A DNA stretch of 32,185 bases from Nemertoderma westbladi (lineage: Eukaryota > Animalia > Xenacoelomorpha): the NCBI GenBank assembly GCA_032718475.1, contig JAUCBJ010005023.1, positions 1 through 32,185 of the forward strand, written 5' to 3'. Below, in pieces: positions 2,280-31,463 of the stretch. The notes below the pieces were generated by a model. That model was not told the DNA's origin. It ran no database searches and worked only from the letters and a program-made list of their open reading frames with translations. Within the stretch, counting starts at the first letter, position 1, and every line of letters starts with the position of its first letter. The translations under genes were made by a program, and so were the position numbers.

Positions 2280-2670
2280 ATTTTCTGCGATATCTCAAGA
2301 ATTATTCGCTTTTTGTTTTGAAGTTGTCTACCCCCACTAAATCGGCCATTGCGGTTCTAATGATCATAATATTAATGCAGTAGGAGAACTCAAAGTTGGC
2401 CATCGCGAAAATTTAGAAATATCATCACTTGTGCCAAATGGTAGGTTCTGTCCATGATGGATTATTTCACTATAAGGTAGCATTTGTAGCTTAACGTAAA
2501 AACATTCTAAAATCCGACGCATTTTGATTAAATTACAGTAGTGTAATATGCCTATTCATATTGGTACACATAAATCCGTAGGTAATTCTATTGGCGCAGT
2601 GGTCAGATGGTTAAGGCGTTGGTTACATTACAGATCTGGAAGGTTCTAGCGGATTCTATGTCCCAGATTT

Positions 2671-2710
2671 GCTATATAAGGGCCGGTTTGCCCTCGGTTA
2701 TCACTCTATT
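2671..2710 (+). promoter_or_regulatory. Putative LTR Pol II core promoter (TATA + Inr-like)
   Basis: CTATATAAGGG is followed ~25 nt later by TCACTC. The same arrangement is at ~19163 and in the solo LTR (GTATAAAAAGGG ~4372). GCCAAT boxes lie upstream in the 3' LTR (19033-19080) and solo LTR (4136-4300). Confidence 0.5.
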
Positions 2711-3874
2711 CACATTATGTTATCCACACACTTACTTTTCTTGTTATATATCTTTAGATTTAATTTGTTTGATAAATCTTTGTAAATTACACAAATATAC
2801 TGTAAACTTTGAATATGATATTTTGTCTCGTCCACCTTTGGGACTGCCAAACATTTGGGAGATGGCTGCCTAAACCGTTAGGCCGTCAGCAACGCAGGGA
2901 AAGATGTCCACAACGCGCTAAGCGCCCACATTAGATTTGCCCGCGCACCCGTTCGAAGCATGCCCCCTTGCTATACAGCGCCCACTTCAGAGGAAGTTAA
3001 GACTTTGTTTGACGCCCTTGCCCGCAGTAAGACCTATAGATCAGGGTAAGCGTGATGCCGTCCTGGGACACCGTAAAATTTAGGATCGAATATTTAGACT
3101 TAGACAGGAGCAAATAGGCAAAATCCCCGGATTAACCTGTATCTCCTACAGGTGTGAACTATTGCTGTTTGTCAGTATGCGCAAGTACACTTTTGGTGCA
3201 GACAGCACAAGTTCCATAATTTGGTGACTTGCAGTACTGACAGCTCTGTACCGGTTCACTTTGTAGTTTATACATTTGATTGCCCCTGTCTGAGCCCGAA
3301 ATATTTGATCAGACAAGGAGCAGCTTTCTGCTACCGGCACTTTGCTTGGCCTAGGGAGGTTTACTAATATCCTACCGCGCCTTGCCACATACTGATAGGT
3401 ATTGCTGCTAACCACCGCGGCAACACAATTCTAGAATCAAATTGTATACCAGATCAGCTAACGTACGGTAGCAATTAACACCTATTTCTTATCTTACAAC
3501 CAGAATCTGGTATTTGTGCCGATCACGGGTGTAGTTACTAACACCGTAATTGCCCGGTTGAGTTGTGGATAGGAAGGAGAGAGCTTTGATGTCATTTTGT
3601 AAGTATAAAGCCCTACAGAGCGTGATTAGCTTATTTTAGTAGCTATTGTTTTTGGTCAGAAATCACCGAAACCTAGTACGACGGCGATACACCAAAATTG
3701 TTTTATTTGTAACACACACACACGTCCTAAAACATATATACCCCCATCGAGACCTGCTAGCTACTAGCTTACTTTAGGTTACTTTCAATAGGATTTATTC
3801 TGCAGTTCTACCATTCTTATTTGTAATTTTAGGAGATATTTAGTATTTAGTTTTACGGCAAGTATTTTAGATGG

Positions 3875-6165
3875 TGATGAATTATTTCACTATAAGGTAG
3901 CATTTGTAGTTTAACTTTAACGTAAAAACTTTCGAAAATCCGACGTATTTTGATTAAGTTACAGTAATGTAATATGCCTATTCATATTTGTACACATAAA
4001 ACCCTTAGGCACTCTCGTGGCGTAGTGGTCAGATGGTTAAGGCGTTGGTTACATTACATAGGTTACGAGTTCGAATCCCAGTCGGGAAATTTGTATTTTG
4101 GGGCCATTTATTTTCGTTTGGTGCTAATTGGTAGGCCAATGAGAAGCGTACAACGTAGCGAATGATGAGCCAGGCCAATCATAGGGCATAAATTATCTTA
4201 TTGCTCAAATGTGAGGCAGTGGAAAATTCTGTTAGGATTCCATGTCCCAGATTAGTGTAAGGGCCGGACTGCGTTGAACGATGAGCTGGGCCAATCATAG
4301 GGCACGAAGCACTTCATTGCTCAATTGTGAAGCTGTGGAAAATTCTGTTTAGTTTCCATGTGCAATTTCTAGTATAAAAAGGGCGGTTTGCCTTCGGTTA
4401 TCACTTCTATCACACTTCTTAGAACCCTTATGTTACACTCTCTTATTCTTGTAAAAATTAGTTAATTCGGTTTCTTGTTGAAACTTCGTTTTGATAAATC
4501 CTTTGTAAAACTGTAAATATACTGCAAATTCCTGAACATGTTTTTCCTTTGGTCCAACTTCGGGACAGCCGAACATCAGGGAGATGGCAGCCTAGACCGT
4601 TAGGCCGTAAGCAACGCAGGGAAGGGATGTCCACAACACGCTAGCGCCCACATTGGATCGACCGCGCACCCCCTTTGCCCCTTCGAAATGCTCAACTTGC
4701 CATGCAGCGCCCGCTTTGTGAGAAAGGTAAGACTTTGTTCGACGCCCTTGCCCGCCGTAAGACCTATAGATCAGGGTAAGCGTGACACCGTACTGGACGC
4801 CACAAATTTAGGATCAAATAATTATATCCAGACAACCCCCCCCCCCCCCCCCCTTTGTCAAGTCCTACGAATCCCTGGGTTAACCTGTACTTCCTACAGG
4901 TGCGAACTATTGCCATTCGTCAGTACGCGAGTACATATTAGGTACGGACAGCATATGTTCCATAATTTAGTGAGTCGTAGCACTGACTCTTTGGTACCGG
5001 TTCGCTTTGTAGAACGTACATTAGTACCCCCCCCCCCCCCCCCCCTGTCTGGAGTTAGCTATTTGATCAGGCAAGGAGCATTTCTGCTACCGGCACACTG
5101 CTTGGCCTAGGGAGGTTTATTAATATCCTATCGCGCCTTGCCACGTACTGATAGGTATTGCTGCTAACTACCGCAGCAACAAAGTTCTAGAATTAAATTA
5201 GTATACCAGATCAGCTAACGTACGGTAGCGATTAACCCCTATTCTTATCTTACAACCAGAATCTGGTATTAGTGCCGATCACGGGTGTAGTTACTAACAC
5301 TGTGGTTGCCCATTGGGTTGTGGATAGGAAGGAGAGAGCTTTGACGTCATTTGTGAGTATAAAGTTCTACAAAACGCGACTAGTTTATTTTAGTAGCTAG
5401 CGCACGGTATCATTTAGTCAGAAAATCACTAAAACCTAGTAAAAGGAATTACACGAAATAGTTTTATTTGTAACACACCCACACACACACGCCCTAAAAC
5501 ATATTGCCCTTAAAGTTCTACTAGCTATAGCGCACTATACATTACTTTAGGTGGAAATTGTCTGTATTTGTAAAATTAGGATCCGATTTAGTTGCGGCAA
5601 AATAAGGAGTATTTCACTTTCGTTATTAAACTGTTGATTTCTATCCAGCAGTTATTGTTACATTTAGGCCTGACCCTTTAGACTGATTTCGTACAGGGGG
5701 ATCAGTTATCGTTACATTAGGTACGACCCCTTTCGACTGATTTTAGGACTGAATCAGTGTTGTTACGCTAGGTCTGTTAACCCACTAGCTCGTATATAAA
5801 CCATATAAATCACACCGCGGCAAGTTACTGTATTTAGGACTGTCAGTGATAGTTAGGATTCGCTGCGCGGGGATTGTTTTCCCGTGAGTTTGGTCTGTTA
5901 CTGTAACTGTACATCTGCCTCACCGGTTAGAGGACAGGTATCCTTCTGTCTAGTACGTAGGCATTAGACCCGCTCACGTACATAGAATAGATACTAGGCT
6001 CTGTTCCTCGCCAGTAGTCGTTTGTGTACTGTATCTGTTTGTTTAGATATCCTGGACTGGGATTTGTTGTCAGATACTGTACGAGCCCGTATACATTACT
6101 AGAGTCTCATAGTAAGATACATCGTTACTAGGATCTGGTAAGCGGTATACTACTGGACCCTTACA
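3875..6165 (+). mobile_element. Solo LTR of a related BEL subfamily inserted in the 5' LTR
   Basis: TGATGAATTATTTCAC...GGACCCTTACA is homologous along its length to the host LTR but diverged. TSD GATGG at 3870-3874 and 6166-6170. The empty site TTTTAGATGGCATGCACC is seen in the 3' LTR (~20065-20082). Confidence 0.93.
4012..4099 (+). ncRNA. tRNA-derived Pol III-like unit in the solo LTR
   Basis: A box TGGCGTAGTGG (4018-4028), B box GTTCGAATCC (4069-4078), T4 at 4096-4099. No intact anticodon arm. Confidence 0.6.
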
Positions 6166-6670
6166 GATGGCATGCACCCTTTTGACTGCTTTGCCCCTGT
6201 CAGCAGTATTGTTACTTTAGGTACTACCCCCTTTTTGACTGCTACCGCTTGTTAGTAGTATTGTTATGCTAGTCTGGTAATCCACTAGCTCGTATATAAA
6301 CCATATAAATCACACCGCGGCAAGTTTACGGTATTTAGGTCCGTTAGCGATAGTTAGGATTCGCTGCGCGGGGATTGTTTTCCTGTGAGTTTGGTCTGTC
6401 ACTGTAGACTGTACATCTGCCTCACCGGTTAGAGGCCGGGTATCCTGTTTTGTCTAGTTCGCCCGGGCATTTGACACGCCCACGTATTAGAATAGACACC
6501 AGGCTCCATTCCTCGTCAGTAGTAGTTCGCGTATTTAGTATCTGTTTATTTAGACACCCTGGACTGGGATTTATTGTCAGATACTGTACGAGCCCGTATA
6601 CACTACTAGATCTTACAGTAAGGTACATCATTACTAGGATCCGGTAGGCGGTATACTACTGGACTTTTCA

Positions 6671-6681
6671 GTAGGAGATAT
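6671..6681 (+). other. Non-canonical primer-binding-site position of element 1
   Basis: GTAGGAGATAT follows the LTR CA directly, with no TGG. The first 10 nt are complementary to TATCTCCTAC at 3140-3149 and 19630-19639. Confidence 0.55.
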
Positions 6682-7494
6682 ATATATAAATATATATTAT
6701 TAGCTATTGTAAAGGTGGGAAGATATTTTACAATTTAAAAATTTAATAAAGTTAGTAATTTGTAGAACGTCCCCTGCCAGTAGGCCTTTAGGGTAGTTTT
6801 ATTCATATTTAGCTAGCTATAAATAGTTAGTTAGTTTGTAATTATTTGTTGTACGCCGTGTGTGTGCGGTGTTACTTTTCGGTACTTGAAAAGGTACATA
6901 GGGTTTAAAGACCAAGTTGTATCGGTACCTAGGAAGAATTTTCGTAGAGTAGAAGTAAAACTCTCACCTTCGACTTTTCAGGACTCAAGGATTCCTTTCT
7001 GGACCGCTTCGAGGGATTAGACCGCTTTTCGCAAAGTTTGGGAGACACAAAATTCGTCCGCGATGCCGAAAACGGAACGACCCACGTCCGGTTTGTATTT
7101 GGGAATTTGCACGACTGGAAAATCAAAGGAGCGTAAGTTTTACGACTCTTGTCGTTCAAACTTAAGAGCACAGTAGTACTCAAAATTTGTGGGTTCCACT
7201 GTCTAATTAGTAGTATTGTTGGTACTTATTTTCCCATTAGACGTTGCTGTTTTGCCTATTGTTTGTACTTGTTGATCTACATTTTGGTAACGTATACCGT
7301 TATCTCACTTATTCGTACAAATTTAGCCGGTAGGCTAGATTATTACATATTTTATTATATACTTTGATTTTATTTGTACCGGTTAGGGTATATATATGGT
7401 ATATATATATACTAAGGTAAGTTTGACATTTTGACATTTCGACATTCTGATACTTTGACATTTTATTACCCGTACTTGACGTATATAATAAGAC

Positions 7495-10400
7495 ATGAGT
7501 GATACACCACATTCACTCGATACCCACCTACCGACTATGACTCGTGCGACCCAGACAGATCGACAGTAGACGAACCGAGAAGGAGAACCCAAGATTCCAC
7601 CGATGTCACACCGCATATTACTCGAAACTTCGGAGAAGGTTTTCGCGTTTTACGCGAGTTAACCGCCCCGATGTCGAGATACGAGTTCTACACCTTACAG
7701 GTAAGGATAGAAAGTAGGGTACATGCTTCTGTAGATAAACTTAAAGGTTTACACGAACTTGCAGAGTTGCGTGGCGACAACTTTACTCAGGTAAAGATAA
7801 TAGATAAGTTGGTAAGTGCGAGGGAAAGCCTCATCCAGTTTAAGTCGGTTGTAGGATCGACTCAGCAAGAACAACTCGACCAACTGTTATGTGAGTCAGT
7901 TTCGGACGCATTGTTACAACCCGAAGACTATACTGCCTGGATGGGAGGTTAGAGACGCTCACCAATTTTCTTCGTAGATGTGGCGTCGTACCGATCGAAG
8001 AACCGGAAGTCGAACCGCGAGGGATGACGGAAGTTCTAACTACGGAAGGCTCGCGAGCCTACCAAATTCCACAACTGGATAGATCGTTCGTTAGTGTGCG
8101 GAGCGACGTTGGCGATGTTAGTAGGACAGCATCTGTAATTACTCGACAACAACAGGAGGTCGCACGCCGAAAACAAGTCGCCGAGGAAGAAACGCAACGA
8201 CAATTGGCGCAGATTGCGGCGGAAGGAGAAAGACAGCGCAGAGAAGATGTAGCGAAATTTGCGAAACTCCAGGCTCAAGCCGAATTTGAAGCATCGGAGA
8301 TGCGGAGATTAGAGGAGGATTTAGCGCGAGAAGCGGCGGCAGCAGCCGACCAGTTAGCACGACAGGCGGCAGCTGACGAGTTAGCACGACAGGCGGCAGC
8401 TGACGAGTTAGCACGACAGGCGGCAGCTGACGAGTTAGCACAACAGGTGGCAGCTGACGAGTTAACACGGAAGAAAGCAGCATCCGATGCTCGTGCCAAG
8501 TTGGAGGCGCGACAAATAAACGCTCGTTTAGCTATACAGGAAGCGGAGTTAGCAGCACAACAACAGGTGGCCGATCGCTGCGAAAGGGAGATGCAGCTCC
8601 AGTTCAAACTAAATCGCAGATCGCGCGAGGTGGCGAACGCGCAAGAGGACCTCGAACTCGATGCGAGAGATAGATCTATAAGGTCTCGAGCTGGACATGA
8701 CTTGTCTGCCCTGGATCGCATGGAGACTCGATATCGCGGAATTCAGAAGCGAATCAAGGAAGGAAGTGTGGGAGCGATAGATCGAGGAGAGGAGTTTGTC
8801 GAGGATTACTGTCAACGTTTTCCACAAGTTATTCCTATGCTCAAACCCACGACTCCAGTAAAACCGGTCATAGTTGCAAAACCGAAGAAAATATCACCCA
8901 TGCAAGGTAATAGGTTTGTTATGTCGGAATCAATTCCGCAGCCACGAGCGACTTCATCGCGATTCTCGCAGGTAAGATAAGTAGTCCACCTACTGTAAGC
9001 CGTAGTTTACTTGTAGAGAGAGACGAACCTGCATTTATGAATGTAAAACAGGTGAGTAAACCATTACAAGTTAAACCTGTGCCGTGCTGCGCAAACCCAG
9101 TCATTTATAAACCTACAGTAGCACTTAACTCTGATGTTTTTACTAGACCCCTCACCCAATGTTTATCGAGACCTACAACTTCGTGGAAGGCTTGCAAGCC
9201 TACCGAACAACGAAGGACTAACCTTGTGGGTAGTACCCACACTATCGAACCAAGTTTAACAAGACCTACGACTTCGTGGAAGGCTTGCGAGCCTACCGAA
9301 CAATGGAGAGCCGTAGATCCCAGACCACAACGAACGCGACAAAGAGTAATATGCCGTATGCGAACCCACCAACCACCTTATCTGGATGACAGCGACTCAT
9401 CCAGTGACTCGGAGTCGACAGAATGGGAAATATTCCGTACTGGAGCGGCAGCGGCAGCGGATTACAAATGGGAGGAGAGATCGACAAATCCATACATCGA
9501 CAATCCTCCACGAGAAACACCTTTGCAGAAACCCACGTTGCAACCAACGGAAGCGATTAGCGCCAAACAGTTCACCGAGATGATGGACTGACTAGCTCAA
9601 CTCGAAGAGCGACTCGAAGCGCAACTGTCGGATCGATCATGAACCAGCATGGAGTTGGAACAACCTAGACAACATCGACCACTAAGGAGAGAACAGGAGA
9701 CTAGACAGACGCCGAACCATCGAGAAGAAGATCCTGTTAATATTTCCTACCGACGGACAACGCGCAGAAGGGAACGACGCAACCGAACAAGGACACGGAC
9801 AGTTGGATTTGGTTAGCGAGATTGCGAAGTTTGCGGCTAGACACGGATTACCGGCACAACAACCGCCGAAGTTCTCTGGCAACGCAAAACACTGGCGTAC
9901 GCTGGTAGACTACGTAGAGTCCCAGATCGCTAAGTGTGCTTTCACCTCGATGGAGAAGTTTAATTACTTGCTCCAGGTTCTGTCTGGTGAGCCGAAACGA
10001 TTAGCGGAAACCTTCATTGGTGTTCCAGATGCCTTTGAGTTGGCGTATGACCGTTTGTATTCGATTTACGGCGGCAACGTAGCCATGGCTAAATCTATAT
10101 CGAAGACCTCTGTAGAGGAGGAAGTATTTCGAAACCGATCAATCTTTTACGACTCGCGGACAAAATCAAGAATGCTATACGGACTTTATGGTCCATTGGA
10201 CAACTCGAATACGCTAACGCACCGACAGTTCTCATTATGATAATCGGTCGAATTCATCATCGATTACGACGAGAATGGCGACGCATCGAGTATCAGCGTG
10301 AAGAGGCCGGTGGGCTATTAAAACTTACCGACGTCTACCAACTGATTTCGCGGGAGGCCGTAGTGGAGATTTGATCAAACTATACTGATCACCATATAGC

Positions 10401-10943
10401 GGCAGAAGGAATAGCTATTGCTCCGCCGACTCGGACCAAACCATTTCCGACGAACGCAAAAGCCGTGACTTATGCCACCCGACCGAAACTTCTAAAGTTC
10501 TGACGCCTATTGGCACCAAGCAGCCACGACAACAGTTGCCGGCGGACTTTGTGGGATGCTCATAGTGCGAGCGGAACGGCAGAAACCACAGCGGACATAA
10601 ACTACGTGGATGTCGCGCTTTTAGAGAGTTGGGAGTTAAAGAAAGGAGACTTCAAATTCGATCTTTGGATTCTTGTTGGAGATGTACCAAGCCTGGACAC
10701 GTCCGGAAGGATTGCCCGAGCGACAATACATGTCCTCTATGTGGACGTAACCACGACTCGTTACTTCACACAAACAGTCATACTCTGACCAGACGCTTTC
10801 GACGAGAGCATCCAGATAAAGCGGCTAGATGCGACGCACTTTATAAAGAGCGTGCGCCACGCGAGACTCATACATTCTATACGGACTGTATGGATCAATC
10901 AGGCTCATCGGACAAGGATGAGGAGGAAGACAACACCTTTTAA
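7495..10943 (+). pseudogene. gag: BEL/Pao Gag (fragmented by stops and frameshifts)
   Basis: Long coiled-coil N-terminal part (8024-8980). DUF1759-like PPKFSGNAKHW...EKFNYLLQVLSGEP (9803-10240). Cys/His knuckles CWRCTKPGHVRKDC and CPLCGRNHDSLLH (10629-10943), plus a first knuckle near 10555-10615. The start at ATG 7495 is tentative. Confidence 0.9.
8340..8465 (+). repeat. 27-bp coding tandem repeat (AADELARQA)n, ~5 units
   Basis: GCAGCTGACGAGTTAGCACGACAGGCG repeated in frame within the gag coiled coil. Confidence 0.9.
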
Positions 10944-11576
10944 GTGCATGCAGGGGAGGAACAACCATCGATAACACTCCTCACACAGAACCAATTGAAA
11001 GGGTTTAGCGTGATTCCTATAAAGATTACCGGAACCCGAGGGAGCAAGCGTATATACGCTATCTTAGACTCTGCGTCATCGCATAGTTACGTCAACGAAC
11101 AAGTAGCTGACGTAGTTACGGACATGAGTAAAGGTAAGACTGCTCAGTATACTGTAAGCAGCATGCATGGTAAGAGAGCAATCCCAGTGACGAGAGTAAA
11201 ACTTACCTTAGACACTCTTCTTTCCAAAACGGAATACAGCAAGGAGGAGCGCTCATTACTTCCAGTAAGAAATTTGACCATTGCATCTACGAAGGACTTT
11301 AGTAACTTGCTCGGCCCTGTGCCAGAGCTATCACCGGAAGATTGTAAGTATTTCCGATACCTTAGAATACCGGAATGTCCTGTTAATTATCGCTCAATCG
11401 TGATGTTGATTGGGACAGACCAGTTTAACTTACATCAGGTATGGGAGACACGCCCCTCTGTTATTACAGCGGGCAACCCCTACGCATGTAGAACTCCCAT
11501 AGGTTGGTATACTAGAGCACCAGTGCATTCAGTAGAGGTAAGTGATCAGGAGGATGACGTTTTTGAGTACGTGTAG
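10944..11576 (+). pseudogene. pol: BEL/Pao aspartic protease domain
   Basis: IYAILDSASSHSYV active-site motif, MLIGTD, and PYACRTPIGW. Confidence 0.9.
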
Positions 11577-12099
11577 TTTACTGACTACCACGATAGATAA
11601 TTCTCCTTCACACTCCTGTGGTCCAATTGTACAGACTGCACTACAACAGACTTGCGTCGCTAATGCTGACGTAACTGATACTGACATAACTGATCTGGAT
11701 ACGACCACACGGACCTCTGACTTACAACTACTTGCAGTAAACCAGGTTGTATTGACTACTGAAGACCAAAGGGTTGTTGCTGTGGATGACTCGATGAATG
11801 AGGGTTTTGGAAGGCTTGCGAGCCTACCGAAAAATCCGAAGGTCATTGACCCCACCCACCAGTCTTCGACACCGGTCATTGATCTTGGAAGGCTTGCGAG
11901 CCTACCGACAGATCAGAAGGTTGTCAAACCGCCACACGACGATTCGACGCCGACTAGTGACACCGGAAAGCTTGCGAGCCTACCAGACACATTGACACTA
12001 GCCACCGCAACGGACAAAGACGTGGACGAGGACCATGGCGCAGTGCAAGCAGCGCTTGACCGACTGCTGACTGAACGGACCATTAACTGGTTAGAACAG

Positions 12100-13130
12100 G
12101 ACTCAGCAGAACCCGGTAGTTACGAGACCGCTATGTCAGAACAGGAAAAACGGTCATTAAATATTATGAGAGATACCATTCGCCAGACCGCGAATGGACA
12201 CTACGCAGTAGGCATGTTGTGGCGCAATGGACAACATAAGCTCGTTAACAACTACCCGCTTGCTTTGAGGCGACTCAACTCAATAAGGCAGCGATTGTTG
12301 CATGATGAGACGACCCATATGCAATACAATGCGCAACTTCAGACGTATCTCCAAAAGGGATACGCCATTAGGATGTTAAATCCCAAGGTAACCACAGATC
12401 AGACATATTACCTGCCACATCATTTTGTTTGACACCCGGACAAACCTGGCAAGGTGCGTGTTGTCAACGACTGCGCTGCGCTTTACCAAGGGATGTCTAT
12501 GAACAGCGAACTGATGGACGGGCCGAATATGAATAATTACCTCATGGGAGTCATAATGCATTTTAGACAACGCAAAATGGCTTTCACCTGTGACGTAGAG
12601 GCCATGTTTCACCAGGTTAAGGCTTTGGAGCGGGACAGGGACAGTTTAATGTTTCTTTGGTATCCGGACGGAAATTTAGAACTTCCGCCAGAAACTTACC
12701 AAATGCAGGTAAGAGTTTTCGGAGCAAGGGACAGCCCAACTGCACCATGTATTCCTTAAAGCAGACTGCATCGGACAGACAAGACCAATTTGACCCAGAA
12801 GTAGTTTGGACAGTGGAACGAGACTTCTACGTGGATGATAGCCTCAAGAATTGTGACACTCTGGAGTGCGCTACGACCGTAGCACACCAACTCCAAGATT
12901 GTCTCGCTGAGGGCGGATTTCGACTCACGAAGTTAATTTCCAACGAACCCGAATTAGTGAACTCATTCGACCCGAAGGATCGCAGTGGAGGAGACTTGGA
13001 CTTAGACCAAGAACCTCTACCTATGACCAAGGTATTATGACTTAGGTGGGACCTGAACACCGACAATTTTAGTGTACGTGTAAGGTCCAACGACCAGACT
13101 AGACCTCTCACTAAGAGGACTTGCTTATCG
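12100..13130 (+). pseudogene. pol: BEL/Pao reverse transcriptase (stops and frameshifts)
   Basis: YYLPHHFV*HPDKPGKVRVVNDCAA, LMDGPN, DVEAMFHQV, FGARDSP, FYVDD, GGFRLTK. Confidence 0.95.
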
Positions 13131-13133
13131 ACC

Positions 13134-13850
13134 ATGAGTCGATTGTATGACCCATTGTGTTTCATTAGTCGAGTGATCCTACATGCTAGGATCATACTCC
13201 GCAGCATTTGGCAAGGCGGACTGGAATGGGACGATCCCATCCCAGAAAAGTTAGCTGAGCAATGGAGGGACTGGGAAGCCCAACTGACGTTCTTACAAGA
13301 CTATACCATACCAAGGGTATACTTTCCTTTGCAGACCACCTTTCCTGCCGATTTAGGGCTTCACAGCTTCAATGACGCTAGTAAGGATGGACTGGGGGTT
13401 ACTTTATACCTTAGACGACAAGTGACATCGGACAGCTACGAAGTGTCTCTCGTTACTTCAAGGGCTAGAACAATGCCGTTGAAGTATATGACTGTACCTC
13501 GTGGAGAGCTGCAAGCCGGGACGATATCCACCGATATTGTAAGTTTAGTTCAACGCGAGCTGGAGGCTAACTTGAAGGTCACATATTGGACGGATGCGAT
13601 GTTGGTACTTTGGTACATAAACAACGAAACATTCAAGTTCAAGACTTTCATAGCCAAAAGACGGGCTGAAATATTAGACCGGTCGCTCAAACAAGATTGG
13701 CGTCACTGTCCAGGGAAGCTGAACCCAGCTGACATCGCGTCACGGGGGATGCTACCGATCGACTTTTGTAAACCGGACAATAAATCCTTTTGGTTTAGAG
13801 GACCCGATTTCCTACAACGACCATCAGACGAATGGCCACCGTTATTAGAT
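13134..13850 (+). pseudogene. pol: BEL/Pao connection and RNase H domain
   Basis: LYDPL, WDDPIP, FNDASKDGLG, VPRGELQA, YWTDAMLVL, WRHCPGKLNPADIASRG, WFRGPDFL. Confidence 0.95.
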
Positions 13851-13969
13851 GCGACAACTAATACCATACCGGAGGGTGCCGAGATAAAAATCGACACAGT
13901 TGTCAAATCTAAAGTGAAAGCCAAGGTCAAGAGGAAACAAGGACGGACGAAATCTGATGACCTGGACGC

Positions 13970-14390
13970 TAGACCCGACATTACGCCAGACGTCTCACCA
14001 GACTCTTGACCAGACGCTCGTATGAATCTTTCACCGGAGTTCCGCGGGAGATTTCACCAGAAGTTTCGCCGGATTGTTCACCAGATGACTCGCCAGATTA
14101 TTCACCAGAAGCGACACCAGATTGTTCTCTGGATTGTCCGCCAGATTGTTTTATGGAACTCTCGACAGATTGTCTACCGGATGTTTCACCAGACTTTCCA
14201 CCAGACATCTCGACAGACTGTCCATTAGACTTTAGACCAGACATTCTGATAGAAGCTACGCCAGACTTTCTTTGGGACTGATGACAGAACATTTCGCCAG
14301 AAGTTCCGCGCTATGTCTCACCAGACGTCTTACCAGACTATTCACCGGACACCTCACCAGACTGTCTACTAGACTTTCCACTAGACGACT
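13970..14390 (+). repeat. Degenerate 12-bp tandem repeat encoding (P-D/E-x-S/P)n between RNase H and integrase
   Basis: CCAGAC/CCGGAT/CCAGAA recur with 12-nt spacing. Translation: SPEVSPDCSPDDSPDYSPEATPDCSLDCPPDC... Confidence 0.85.
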
Positions 14391-14799
14391 CGATGGAAAG
14401 AAAAGACGTGTATTATAAGGACGCAATGAATTCATTGGAGCGGACTAGTACACACCCATTAGGTATTAACAACTTACCGAATTTGACTTCTTTGGACGAT
14501 GAAGGTGTGGCCACAGCGATCACACTCCCCTCAAGGAAAATACTTGACTTACTGTCTACAGGTAAACGTGTGACTAAGGTTAGGAAGCTTATGAGTTGAA
14601 ACCGTTACTGCCAGTCAATTCACTAGGTGCGGACGGTAAAGGTAAGACCGTGGAGATTGATATACTTGAGGACTCAGACAAACATATTGTACAAAGGGAG
14701 ACACCTACCAGAAGGCCCGTGGGCCTACCAAGTCCAAACAAGTATCCACATTTTGACTATACCTTACCTGATGACGTCACCAACACTTACGTTGACAGG

Positions 14800-16340
14800 A
14801 TAGTAAACCTAACTAGATCATGGACTGAAGCGTGCCGCAAGCTAGCATGGCTCAAACGTTTGAGACAATATGCCAGAGGCAAACGCGACTTTCCTAGAAG
14901 ACTTACCTTAGAGGAAGTTGGTCTTTATGAACTTGATATTATTAGACATTATCAATTGCGATATTTTGCACGAGAGTTCACAGCGATCAATCAGGGTAAA
15001 CAGATCAAGTCTTCACCGATTTTGAGTTGGAGTCCGATAATCTATAGGGGCTTACTTTGTCACAAGTCCAGACTCCAGAACATTGACTTTGCACTTGACT
15101 TTAGGTATCCTATCATCATACCGCAACACCATGAGTTACAGCGCGCTATGATACTGGACGCACATGTACGACTCAAACACGTAGGTAGACATCACTGTCT
15201 ATCACACTCATGATCGAGATTTGTACTGATTAGGCCTAGTAAGGCACTGAATTCGGTAACAATGAACTGTATGATTTGTAAGAAGGTGCACGCGAGGATA
15301 GGACACCAAGAGATGAGTGAACTACCACTAGCGAGATTACAGGCTTTTAGACCCCCTTTCACTGAGACAGGGATAGACTGTTTTGGACCCATAATCGCGA
15401 AACGCAGAAGGGTACAGGTAAAACGTTGTGGATTGATCTTCACTTGCATGGCCAGCAGAGCTATCCATATAGAGCGTGTGACAGACTTGACCACCAACGC
15501 CTTTATCCTAGCCTTACGGCGATTTATCTCTAGACATGGATTGTTCAAATCCATTTATTGCGACCAAGGGACTAACTTTGTGGGTGCACGGAATGAAATT
15601 ACCAGAGCTTTAAGGAAGTTGGACCAAAACCAGATTTCCGAGGAATTACGTCCTCACCGTATTGTTTGGAGCTTTAACACTCCTGACAGTCCGTGGAGAG
15701 GCGGCGTTTGGGAAAGGCTGATTGGGTCAATAAAGACGGATATGGCAAAAGTAATACCGACGCAACACATACTAACAGACGACCAACTGACGACGTTGTT
15801 AATAGAAATCGAAGCGGTTTTGAATACTCGACCGATCGCTTTGATCCCAGACAATAACGACTCACAGTTTGCCTTGACACTCAGCGCACCTGCTTATGCA
15901 GGCGCTGACGACATTGTTGCCCACTTCGGTACCTGTCGATAGCGATGGATACGGCAACAAAGCTTGGAAAATCACTCAGTTGTTAGCCAACAAATTCTGG
16001 GAAATATGGCAGAAGCACTATTTGCCCTCTATTTCAACCAGAACCTCTTGGTACCCGATGTTTGAGACGAGGTGACCACGTTTTATTGGCTGAAACCAAT
16101 CTGAAAAGACGGTTTTGGCTGACTGGAGTCATTTTGATCAAGCACCCTACATCTGGTATAGTAAGGACAGTTACTGTACGGACTATTGGCAGACGTACCG
16201 TAGGCCTGTACAACGTCTCGTGCTCCTTGAGGAGACTAGAAACGAGACAGGAGACTACAAATCTCCACCCAATCTTAGTAAATAGAGATGTGGGAGCCTT
16301 GATGGCCGCCACATCGACTTACCGTATTTTAGTAATTTAG
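14800..16340 (+). pseudogene. pol: BEL/Pao integrase (HHCC zinc finger, DDE core, C-terminal DUF5641-like region)
   Basis: HVRLKHVG...CMICKK, GIDCFGP, IYCDQGTNFVGA, PWRGGVWERLIGSIK, IEAVLNTRP, FWEIWQKHYLP, GDHVLL...WLTGVI...GIVRTVTVRT. Confidence 0.95.
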
Positions 16341-18775: not shown

Positions 18776-20569
18776 TGATGGATTATTTCACTATATGGTA
18801 GCATTTGTAGCTTAACGTAAAAACTTTCTAAAATCCGACGCATTTTGATTAAATTACAGTAGTGTAATATGCCTATTCATATTGGTACACATAAATCCGT
18901 AGGTAATTCTATTGGCGCAGTGGTCAGATGGTTAAGGCGTTGGTTACATTACAGATAGGTTACGAGTTCGAATCCCAGTCGGGAAATTTGCATTTTTGGG
19001 CAATTTATTTTCACTTTGATCTAATTAGATAAGCCAATGAGGTGCATACAACGTATGGAACGATGAGTTGGGCCAATCATAGGGCATAGCACATCTTATT
19101 GCTCCAATGTGAGGCCATGGAATGCTCTGGAAGGTTCTAGCGGATTCTATGTCCCAGATTTGCTATATAAGGGCCGGTTTGCCCTCGGTTATCACTCTAT
19201 TCACATTATGTTATCCGTACACTTACTTTTCTTGTTATATCTTTAGATTTAATTTGTTTGATAAATCTTTGTAAATTACACAAATATACTGTAAACTTTG
19301 AACATGTATATTTTGTCTCGTCCACCTTTGGGACAGCCAAACATATGGGAGATGGCTGCCTAAACCGTTAGGCCGTCAGCAACGCAGGGAAAGATGTCCA
19401 CAACACGCTAAGCGCCCACATTAGATTTGCCCACACGCCCGTTCGAAGCATGCCCCCTTGCCATACAGCGCCCACTTCAGAGGAAGGTAAGACTTTGTTT
19501 GACGCCCTTGCCCGCATTAAGACCTACAGATCAGGGTAAGCGTGACGCCGTCCTGGGACGCCGTAAAATTTAGGATCGAATATTTAGACTTAGACAGGAG
19601 CAAACAAGCAAAATCCCCGGATTAACCTGTATCTCCTACAGGTGTGAACTATTGCTGTTCATCAGTACGCGCAAGTACACTTTAGGTGCAGACAGCACAA
19701 GTTCCATAATTTGGTGATTTGCAGTACTGACAGCTCTGTACCGGTTCACTTTGTAGTTTATACATTTGCCCGCCCCTGTCTGAGCCCGAAATATTTGATC
19801 AGGCAAGAAGCTTATTTTAGTAGCTAGCGCGCGGTATTGTTTTTGGTCAGAAATCACCGAAACCTAGTACGACGGCGATACACCGAAAATGTTTTATTTG
19901 TAACACACACACACACACACACGTTATAAAACATATATACCCCCTTCGAGACCTGCTAGCTACTAGCTTACTTTAGGTTACTTTCAATAGGATTTATTCT
20001 GCAGTTCTACCATTCGTATTTGTAATTTTACGAGATATTTAGTATTTAGTTTTACGGCAAGTATTTTAGATGGCATGCACCCTTTTGACTGCTTTGCCCC
20101 TGTCAGCAGTATTGTTACTTTAGGTACTACCCCCTTTTTGACTGCTACCGCTTGTTAGTAGTATTGTTACGCTAGTCTGTTAATCCACTAGCTCGTATAT
20201 AAACCATATAAATCACACCGCGGCAAGTTTACGGTATTTAGGTCCATTAGCGATAGTTAGGATTCGCTGCGCGGGAATTGTTTTCCCGTGAGTTTGGTCT
20301 GTCACCGTAGACTATCTGCCTCACCGGTTAGAGGCCGGGCATCCTGTTTGTCTAGTTAGCCCCGGGCATTTGACTCGCCCACGTATTAGAATAGACGCCA
20401 GGCTCCGTTCCTCGCCAGTAGTAGTTCGCGTATTTAGTATCTGTTTATTTAGACACCCTGGACTGGGATTTGTTGTCAGATACTGTACGAGCCCGTATAC
20501 ACTACTAGATCTTACAGTAAGGTACATCGTTACTAGGATCCGGTAGGCGGTATACTACTGGACTTTTCA
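18776..20569 (+). repeat. 3' LTR of element 1 (1794 bp)
   Basis: TGATGG...CTTTTCA followed by TSD GTCCA; matches the 5' LTR. Confidence 0.96.
18906..18997 (+). ncRNA. tRNA-derived Pol III-like unit in the 3' LTR U3
   Basis: A box TGGCGCAGTGG (18913-18923), B box GTTCGAATCC (18966-18975), T5 at 18993-18997. The 5' LTR copy (~2590-2635) has lost the B box by deletion. Confidence 0.6.
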
Positions 20570-21602
20570 GTCCATGTGCCTGTGGCACTAGTTCCCTTGA
20601 TCCAAAAATTAAAATTTTGGTATCTAACTAAGTTTGGACCCATTTGATGACATTTGATGCATGCAGGAAGTTATTTCTTGAGTCATTGATCTTTCATTAA
20701 TGTGTTATATTGCTATAAATTTCATTATGGTGCATCGCGATGGCTCAAAATTTCAACCCTCTTGGGATCCGTGAAGATATAGACGAAATTTAAATAATTT
20801 TTTTTTCCTTATTTTTTTACCATTTGGCAACTTTTGTGCACCGGTAGAACAATGAAATCGAAAAAAAAAGTAAAAACGCACCGCCCTAATGGACAGCCCT
20901 AATTATCCCTCACCTCTATATTTCCTTGCATCTTCATAATTTTTTGTTTATGTTATGTCATTAAAGTTAAGTTAAATTTACTAAATTTATTTTTTAGGAT
21001 GGTGTAATTCTATTCTGGACCAACTCGTTTTTTGACCTATCAGTTTCTCTGCGAACTTCTGTGCCAAGATTGTCGAGCCTTGGCATAGATAACGAAGTTG
21101 GTTCACTCATCATCTCAACTGGTCAATGGGAATTATTTAGGTATATATAAAATTTACGTAAATAAAAAGTAGGTGTAAATATTTTTTAATTTCATAAAGA
21201 AGGATTTATAGAGAAAATATGTAATAAATATAAAAATAAATAATATAAAAACTGCGGGTGAGAATCCTTTAACATCTAAATGGCACACAGTATATATGAG
21301 TTAGGTTTCAGATTGACCCCATGTTTTCAGGGGCGGGGGTGGGGGGGGGGGGGGGGTGGTTCTAGCTTGGAAGTCAACATTTTGAAAAGCTTACAGCACC
21401 AAAAGGCGAATAAGTATAAAAAATGAAAAAAATGTGTAAGATACATACATTTTGGGTGGACTATATTGAATTGAATAATTATAAAAAAAAATTAACTTTT
21501 GACGCCCAGAACCAAAGACCTATTAAATTTTTAATTAAAATTATACTCCTTTGTTATACTTTAATTTCAGAAGCTTTAAAATGGTTTTTTTCCAAAATTG
21601 TA

Positions 21603-23199: not shown

Positions 23200-23820
23200 T
23201 GTGACGGGATCGAAGATCCCAACCGGGTTGATGTTTCACGCGTCACCGTTCTACTGTCAGGGATGGTGCTAGTAGCCTGGCCGAGGCCGTTATAGGAAAA
23301 CAATGAGAGTCCGGTGTTGTCTCTTTGATAATAGCACAATAATGTTATGGTAGAACCACAGATTTAATGATACCGGTATGTGTCTGATTGATCAGTACGG
23401 TAAACAACTGATACCGGTCTGCACTAACTGAGTAATTAACTAAACTGAATGACACACCGGTAACAGGAGATAATATATGATTGATATAGCAATATTGCTT
23501 CACTCCTACGTTACCTTGGCCTGCTACCTAGTGGATGCTCTCCTTTGCCCTTATTGGCTAATAACCTACTTCTCACCCTTTCACTCTCTGGGAGTGTTTC
23601 CCCTCTGTTACTAGCCTCTGCTAGCTGTGTCCCCTCCGAGGTGGTTTGACCTCTAACCTTCCTTTGTGTGTGGCTTCGGGGTTTGTGTTGCCCCCCCCCC
23701 CCCAAAATGGTGGTTGTGATACGAGATTAATATTGCTAATCTCGTATCTCCAACATATTGCCGAAAATGCCACTGTCCCATTTATTGGTGGGTAATGAGG
23801 CGGAATTGAATGCGCTTACA
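23200..23820 (-). repeat. 3' LTR of element 2 (621 bp)
   Basis: Near-identical to 30850-31463; preceded on the sense strand by the PPT GGGGGGGGTAG. Confidence 0.95.
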
Positions 23821-24422: not shown

Positions 24423-24748
24423 TACCACTCCCTAAAGTGCCAATTTTTCTTATGCTACCCCTCTCTGTGCTATCATTCTATCTACCTTGCTACTTACTTC
24501 TTACTTACTACTTACTATTAACTGCTACTACCTACATAACTGCTACTACTCAATACCTACACTACCACTACCTCTCTCACTCTCTCTCCTACGTGGCGCT
24601 TTCGGTGCCCACTAACCCCTCTACTCTTTCTATGTGGCGCTTTCGGTGCCCACAACCCCTCTGCTACTACTTCTCATGGTATATCTACATACCACACTCC
24701 CTCTCTTTCTACGTGGCGCTTTCGGTGCCCACAACCTCTAACTCTCTC

Positions 24749-25147
24749 GGTACTATGTACCCTGCTACTCCGGTACTATGTACCCTGCTACTACTCGTGG
24801 TATGTCAATATACCACACTCCCTATCTTCTGCCTACTTCTAACTCTAACGGTACTATGTACCCTCCTACTCCCGTGGTATGTTTATATACCACACTCCCT
24901 AATTTCTGCCTACTTCTAACTCTAACGGTACTATGTACCCTCCTACTCCCGTGGTATGTTTATATACCACACTCCCTAATTTCTGCCTACTTCTAACTCT
25001 AACGGTACTATGTACCCTCCTACTCCCGTGGTATGTTTATATACCACACTCCCTATACCTGCCTACTTCTAACTCTAACGGTACTATGTACCCTCCTACT
25101 CCCGTGGTATGTTTATATACCACATCCCTTTTCTGCCTACTTCTAAC
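24749..25147. repeat. 77-bp tandem array (4 near-identical plus partial units)
   Basis: GGTACTATGTACCC recurs at 24850, 24927, 25004 and 25080, with partial units at 24749 and 24772. Confidence 0.9.
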
Positions 25148-25433
25148 TTCTCTACTCTTACTTCTTACTAACTTCTACTAACTTTCTTACTTCTTACTAA
25201 CTTCTACTAACTTTCTAACTACTACTTACTATCTAACTATCTACTACTATTACTTTCTAACTTTCTACTTATTTTATTATTTTCTTATTATTTTATTTTA
25301 TTTATATTTCTGTGTGGGAAGGGCGTCTCGCCCTCATTCCCACCCCCCTCAGTCCAACATATTGGACGACTAAACTCTCAAGGTGCCCTCTTCTTCCAGG
25401 AGGCACTCTCCCACTGCCCCCCTGTAGGTCCTC

Positions 25434-30838: not shown

Positions 30839-30849
30839 CAGTTGTTTAC
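30839..30849 (-). other. Non-canonical primer-binding-site position of element 2
   Basis: Sense GTAAACAACTG directly after the 5' LTR, with no TGG. It is the exact reverse complement of the LTR segment at 31048-31058 (also 23400-23410). Confidence 0.65.
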
Positions 30850-31463
30850 TGTTTACGGGATTGAAGATCCCGACCGGGTTGATGTTTCATGCGTCACCGT
30901 TCTACTGTCAGGGATGGTGCTAGTAGCCTGGCCAAGGCCATTATAGGAAAACAATGAGAGTCCGGTGTTGTCTCTTTGCTAATAGCACAATAATGTTATG
31001 GTAGAACCACAGATATAATGACACCGGTATGTGTCTGATTGATGATGGTAAACAACTGATACCGGTCTGCACTAACTGAGTAATTAACTAAACTGAATCA
31101 CAAACCGGTAACAGGAGATAATATATGATTGATATAGCAATATTGCTTCGATTGCTACCTAGTCGATGCTCTCCTTTGCCCTTATTGGCTAATAACCTAC
31201 TTCTCACCCTTTCACTCTCTGGGAGTGTTTCCCCTCTGTTACTAGCCTCTGCTAGCTGTGTCCCCTCCGAGGTGGTTTAACCTCTAACCTTCCTTTGTGT
31301 GTGGCTTCGGGGCTTGTGTTGCCCCCCCCCCCCCCCCCAAAAAAAAAAAATGTTGGTTGTGATACGAGATTAATATTGCTAATCTCGTATCTCCAACATA
31401 TTGCCGAAAATGCCACTGTCCCATTTATTGGTGGGTAATGAGGCGGAATTGAATCCGCTTACA
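30850..31463 (-). repeat. 5' LTR of element 2 (~614 bp)
   Basis: Matches 23200-23820. The inner boundary is uncertain by about 1 nt (sense ...CCCGTAAACA versus ...CCCGTCACA). Confidence 0.93.

Follow-up and report, generated by a model that had tools for sequence, protein, structure and literature searches.

The window analysed here, the whole 32,185-nucleotide stretch of Nemertoderma westbladi DNA, holds two LTR elements, whose features are collected in Table 1. On its domain content and termini, element 1 is a degenerate BEL/Pao LTR retrotransposon. Its internal region follows the BEL/Pao domain order, with gag (DUF1759 and a CCHC knuckle) ahead of PR-RT-RH-IN, Peptidase_A17 (Pfam E value 5e-38) and DUF5641. 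The gag-pol region is interrupted by numerous stops and frameshifts, and full-length BEL/Pao polyproteins align to it in collinear tblastn blocks at about 22–45% identity. The element ends in TG...CA LTRs flanked by a 5-bp TSD (GTCCA at 2450–2454, with its partner at 20570–20574), the typical length in BEL/Pao, and the LTR pair is 91–99% identical over the aligned blocks. In a quick tree built without named clade references, the branch leading to element 1 is long (2.11), and P0001 and L002 fall in the same open group. A PBS that starts with TGG and is complementary to a tRNA is usual in BEL/Pao, though not defining; element 1 lacks this usual type of site.

Table 1 Coordinates of the features of the two elements and of the nested solo LTR
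Feature	Position	Strand	Basis
Element 1 5' LTR, TG...CA, split by the nested solo LTR	2455..6670	+	self-comparison, boundary reading
TATA box (2673) and Inr-like site (2698-2705), presumed transcription start	2673..2705	+	consensus match only
Predicted 106-nt intron: donor GTAAGC 3046, branch-like TTAAC 3132-3136, acceptor AG 3150-3151	3046..3151	+	sequence, three-copy LTR alignment
Predicted 7-bp hairpin, 5-nt loop 3142-3146, -8.4 kcal/mol	3135..3153	+	folding prediction
Candidate self-primer	3138..3149, copy 19628-19639	+	complementarity to PBS
Nested solo LTR of sister subfamily, 2291 nt, TSD GATGG (5 bp)	3875..6165	+	self-comparison, boundary reading
Variant primer segment of the solo LTR, 4890-4891 changed, AG 4898-4899 next	4888..4897	+	
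Predicted 8-bp hairpin spanning the U5 end and PBS nt 1-4	6656..6674	+	folding prediction
Element 1 PBS, spacer-free, without TGG; 10 bp (12 with one G-U) to LTR segment	6671..6682	+	
Broken BEL/Pao-type gag-pol: DUF1759, zf-CCHC, RT, Peptidase_A17, integrase, DUF5641	9686..16337	+	Pfam, tblastn
Element 1 3' LTR, TG...CA, 1794 nt	18776..20569	+	self-comparison, boundary reading
Element 2 LTRs	30850-31463 (5') and 23200-23820	-	
Element 2 PBS, 11 nt, directly after 5' LTR	30839..30849	-	
Element 2 complementary LTR segment	31048..31058, copy 23400-23410	-	overlaps TCAGTT Inr-like motif; predicted hairpin loop

Several further features of element 1 and its surroundings were recorded. The 3' LTR lacks about 300 nt (3321–3628) that the 5' LTR and the solo LTR both contain. 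The U3 of both subfamilies contains a well-conserved tRNA-like unit (18908–18999 and 4011–4100) that combines A-box and B-box-like motifs with a run of T; the 3' half of this unit is deleted from the 5' LTR of element 1. The unit drew no ARAGORN or Rfam call, nor did these programs return a match anywhere in the window; it could represent the head of an old SINE, or a Pol III promoter. In the interior, a motif of about 30 nt with a short inverted-repeat core occurs in eight scattered copies between 8035 and 18315, in coding and noncoding parts, and might act as a signal for packaging or structure. Within pol, the stretch between the RNase H and integrase regions contains a degenerate 12-nt tandem array (13962–14386). 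Upstream of gag, long ORFs at 7503–9591, with a 27-nt tandem repeat at 8311–8481, code for a stretch that is charged and coiled-coil-like and found no match in Pfam. Protein searches for matches near query length, run also with the gag of element 2, found nothing. Outside both elements, a degenerate 163-nt tandem array within inverted repeats (780–1544) and a separate inverted pair (1840–2282) are probably non-autonomous DNA transposons.

The ten nucleotides at 6671–6680 begin at the first position after the CA (6669–6670) that ends the 5' LTR, and the closest downstream TGG is 46 nt off, at 6716. They are perfectly complementary to 3140–3149 in the same LTR and to its copy at 19630–19639, and the 10-bp pairing extends to 12 bp with one G-U pair. 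An earlier note on this DNA had described these sites, the lack of TGG after the 5' LTR and the pairing, and each was borne out on the sequence. The note had also taken the pairing for a real feature, as the controls confirm: when the 3' LTR was shuffled by dinucleotides, 16 of 20,000 shuffles contained a complement to the PBS, and a perfect LTR complement exists for 14 of 12,096 internal 10-mers. When a spacer of 0–6 nt was permitted, an equal score was reached from 6 of 400 random starts. The duplex between PBS and segment is predicted at -17.8 kcal/mol, against -7.7 at the second-best LTR site.

Element 2, on the opposite strand, has an 11-nt pairing of the same kind, found in 8 of 20,000 LTR shuffles and at 3 of 7,019 internal positions. 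Its pair is unrelated to that of element 1, and PBS and LTR combined across the two elements form only 4–6 perfect pairs. The element 2 gag matches BEL/Pao proteins (E value 2e-14). As only gag-like and protease pieces were detected with Pfam, element 2 looks non-autonomous. It carries 77-nt tandem repeats (24664–25148), and its host site is a 36-nt repeat of another element. In the 3' LTR of element 2 alone, a GC donor gives one 12-nt splice joint, which we treated as a chance match.

The solo LTR nested in element 1 provides an independent view of the pairing, as the earlier note had predicted from its variant segment which PBS full-length members of that subfamily should carry. We compared the solo LTR end with public contigs from three DNA runs (X1, X2 and X3) of two samples. 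Three contigs in X1 match through 6166 and then give the complete predicted decamer (10 of 10 letters, agreement 1), followed by a T as 11th letter, so that the G-U pair is retained. Compared with element 1, positions 7 and 8 of the PBS have changed in step with LTR positions 4891 and 4890, which makes two compensatory pairs: one G-C pair becomes A-U and one A-U pair becomes G-C. Crossed pairs of PBS and segment between the subfamilies are 5.9–6.9 kcal/mol weaker. The prediction thus came out exactly in X1. It did not in the other runs: a group of two contigs at 6166 in X2 (agreement 0.88) has 2 mismatches to it within the first 10 positions and could be flanking DNA or a copy that has decayed, and X3 has nothing at 6166 among the 18 of 28 loose ends listed. 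Neither the element 1 decamer nor a TGG, the outcomes that would have spoken against the prediction, follows a solo-type end among the 18 of 28 listed. With the prediction passed in one of three runs, the self-pairing interpretation advanced in the note gains support.

These contigs join a solo-type LTR end to a PBS, and the segment about 1270 nt upstream is linked to them through one solo copy. Among the pieces listed, two from X1 that end at 6166 have depths of 20 and 27. The summed depth at 6166 is at most 46% (X1), 46% (X2) and 32% (X3) of that at the LTR end, compared with about 25% for random flanks, which is a rough hint. One X3 contig has a variant LTR end at 6159, after which the next letters are the first three of the PBS and then differ; it may represent a third subfamily with another primer.

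Contigs from four runs cover the LTR end of element 1 itself. Six contigs each in X2 and X3 match through 6681 and then continue into unlike sequence, and joints starting from 6680–6681 occur in X1 and X3. No variant of 6671–6680 appeared among the 40 of 160 matches listed for this end in the four runs. X6, presumed to be an RNA run, gave 3 contigs of low depth, which we gave no weight. The PBS is kept among relatives, as the earlier note required: 6671–6681 is shared and divergence sets in immediately beyond, so that the pairing ends where the relatives part. Further downstream, contig depth at 6850–7065 is about ten- to fiftyfold above that at 6688–6849; a much more abundant family therefore shares this part of the leader and not the part next to the PBS. 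Matching the LTR-end pattern against metagenome contigs gave 0 matches, and no relatives were found among viral contigs.

We then considered the setting of the LTR segment. The 3' end of the candidate primer lies directly before the AG of a predicted splice acceptor, whose donor, branch-like site and AG are conserved across both subfamilies in an alignment of the three LTR copies. All three retain the predicted intron, and the 3' LTR and solo copies have a second donor about 50 nt upstream of GTAAGC. By a crude score that was devised once the site had been seen, the acceptor AG comes top in the 3' LTR, among 79 YAG sites, and again in the solo LTR, among 98. The segment is also predicted to fold. 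In the solo LTR, the predicted stem is identical and both differences between the subfamilies fall inside the 5-nt loop, at positions that remain pyrimidines. The changes thus preserve pyrimidine tract and stem and are compensated in the PBS. We describe the segment, for the first time, as the predicted pyrimidine tract of a 3' splice site that would also form a 7-bp hairpin. The acceptor AG may simply follow from the stem of this hairpin. At the other partner, the U5 hairpin is predicted to have 8 bp plus a weak, G-U-rich extension; the duplex of PBS and segment is favoured over both hairpins together by a margin of only 2.4 kcal/mol (-19.1 versus -16.7). The TATA/Inr region is conserved in both subfamilies. 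The caution in the earlier note that the segment lies about 440 nt downstream of this region stands, and a likely explanation for the gap is that the segment sits, within the LTR, at a predicted 3' splice site.

To place these observations within the superfamily, we used 71 metagenome BEL/Pao loci, the best 71 of 629 when ranked by similarity to an alignment led by P0001, and therefore a non-random sample. Pairing was tested in 18, the other 53 being mostly without a definable LTR pair or LTR start. Fifteen of the 18 were self-complementary, mostly across a predicted splice joint; this count includes the same-family pairs L004/L007 and L036/L038. Where the LTR end was fixed by repeat or family likeness, six of eight loci had an 11–13 nt complement across a GT-AG joint after a 2–5 nt spacer (0 of 400 random starts for each). 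L040 had 10 nt in unspliced form (also 0 of 400), and L038 had 10 nt across a joint once the acceptor rule was relaxed. When the LTR end was left free, we found joints of 10–11 nt in L028, L032, L036, L068 and L069 and unspliced complements of 12 and 14 nt in L065 and L068, subject to a shuffle control that is lenient because shuffling destroys splice sites. L002, which the quick tree puts among the closest loci to element 1, had 13 nt after a 6-nt spacer, a match that carries no random control. L024 had a TGG site, and L023 and L042 showed no self-complementarity when tested. In the quick tree, the label for priming at a joint was equally clustered in 107 of 500 shuffles, and the tree gives the priming types no order. 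A PBS complement spanning an exon–exon joint inside the LTR was noted in L004, L007, L009, L010, L015, L016, L028, L032, L036, L038, L068 and L069, and several loci of this type have a common 11-nt core with spacers of 3–5 nt.

Element 1 differs from both kinds of relative. Splice-joint elements (L004, L007, L009, L010, L015, L016 and L038) likewise have a self-complementary PBS and a segment beside the acceptor of an LTR intron. In these, however, the complement exists only after splicing, whereas in element 1 it exists only before, so that the predicted logic is reversed. A splice-joint primer for element 1 was itself rejected, its LTR offering no GT/GC-AG joint of at least 9 nt (the best has 5 nt, with a spacer). 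Conversely, a segment ending just before an AG occurs in 0 of the 15 positive distant loci. The tRNA-primed loci L024 and L030 have the domain order, TG...CA LTRs and 5-bp TSD of element 1, but a TGG-type site after a 5-nt spacer, where element 1 has neither spacer nor TGG.

The closest known parallel is in Ty3/gypsy. According to the available text of PMC7175516, the first 11 bases of Tf1 RNA pair with the PBS and are removed by RNase H, and that of PMC4600332 proposes that Tj1 self-primes, as do elements of hosts ranging from fungi to vertebrates. Tf1 and Tf2 of S. pombe, Tj1 of S. japonicus and the Tf1/sushi elements resemble element 1 in having no tRNA site and in a PBS that can pair, along about 11 nt, with LTR RNA of the same element; a stem-loop at the U5 end of element 1 is predicted from folding. 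The differences are that element 1 has a BEL/Pao pol rather than the Ty3/gypsy (chromovirus) pol of Tf1/sushi, and that the Tf1 primer is the RNA 5' end whereas the element 1 segment would lie about 440 nt inside, at a predicted 3' splice site and hairpin. Element 1 thus appears to resemble Tf1 in its working while standing outside the Tf1/sushi group. We found no published report of BEL/Pao self-priming in a literature search that drew largely on sources other than subscription journals, Repbase reports and supplements. The available parts of PMC3601003, PMC13524379 and PMC8220671 make no mention of it, and a term search of the accessible text of PMC554778 and PMC3118150 gave zero occurrences of PBS, tRNA or priming. 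Published self-priming, as far as found in these partial texts, is confined to the one Ty3/gypsy lineage, Tf1/sushi, and the BEL/Pao surveys are silent on priming.

Taken together, we put the probability at roughly 0.8 that in element 1 the LTR segment with which the PBS pairs and co-varies serves as the RT primer in place of a tRNA. That this segment is the primer by one route or another is very probable on the sequence evidence; for the particular route set out here, an RNase H cut in unspliced RNA, the chances are about even. Genomic RNA would begin near 2702 and retain the predicted intron. The 5-nt hairpin loop would then touch PBS nucleotides 4–8, and strand exchange would open both hairpins to form an 11–12 bp duplex. 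The RNase H of the element would cut between 3149 and 3150, as in Tf1, leaving a 3'-OH that abuts the terminal CA, from which RT would copy about 930 nt of LTR; the upstream part would come from the 3' LTR transcript. We infer the start site, the splicing and the cleavage from features of the DNA. Because the duplex covers the pyrimidine tract, splicing and priming would be mutually exclusive, and spliced RNA would be unable to prime. Its use as mRNA only would explain why the intron is kept in copies. The route would require no extra enzyme and would account for the intron in all three copies. Plus-strand synthesis copies the primer and so rebuilds the PBS, which means that an LTR-derived primer would itself drive the covariation. 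More tentatively, the 12-nt stretch may combine the roles of pyrimidine tract, hairpin loop and RT primer; spliceosome and element RT would then compete for it, and splicing would sort mRNA from genomic RNA.

The segment could also act as primer by other routes. It is unlikely that the excised intron itself primes, (trans-)splicing having freed an RNA that ends in ...CUACAG and whose tail stays on the PBS and is trimmed by 2 nt. The segment does occupy nearly all of the 16-nt tail from the branch-like A (3135) to the AG, donor, branch and acceptor are kept in both subfamilies, and distant relatives apparently form their primer at an LTR splice joint. However, the trimming would have to be exact, because the tail, if left untrimmed, would meet the PBS with an A-A mismatch and presumably give no CA end. 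A spliced template should also sometimes yield intron-less LTRs, whereas all three copies here retain the intron.

About equally unlikely is a layout as in Tf1, in which a second start at about 3138–3140 would put the segment at the RNA 5' end and the splice signals would be incidental. This mechanism is known (PMC7175516 and PMC4600332, in the parts available), the accessible text of PMC5341516 describes control of Tf2 priming by alternative start sites, and an Inr-like motif overlaps the segment of element 2. Against it, a motif scan gave no TATA match at LTR positions 389–1150 and no Inr-like match at 417–887, and it is the upstream TATA/Inr region that is conserved in both subfamilies.

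A more doubtful alternative accepts the pairing but makes it regulatory, a switch for splicing or packaging, with some other primer such as a tRNA fragment. Covariation indeed demonstrates pairing rather than priming. Yet in two unrelated families the pairing begins right at +1 behind the CA, no TGG site lies nearby, and sister subfamilies have different sites, a difference that a fixed host primer would not promote. Chance complementarity is very improbable and already largely refuted: ten nucleotides are few and the finding was selected from many windows, but the frequencies for elements 1 and 2 are about 1e-3 and 4e-4, respectively, and a prediction was confirmed in independent data.

A self-primer in BEL/Pao would mean that priming without a tRNA arose in, or was retained by, a second superfamily, and would explain elements in which no PBS can be annotated. 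Its position at a splice acceptor would offer a testable way for an LTR element to separate mRNA from genomic RNA and to retain an intron in its LTR. If this is true, element 1 and the exon-joint relatives together would give BEL/Pao a widespread family of tRNA-free priming modes that are coupled to splicing.
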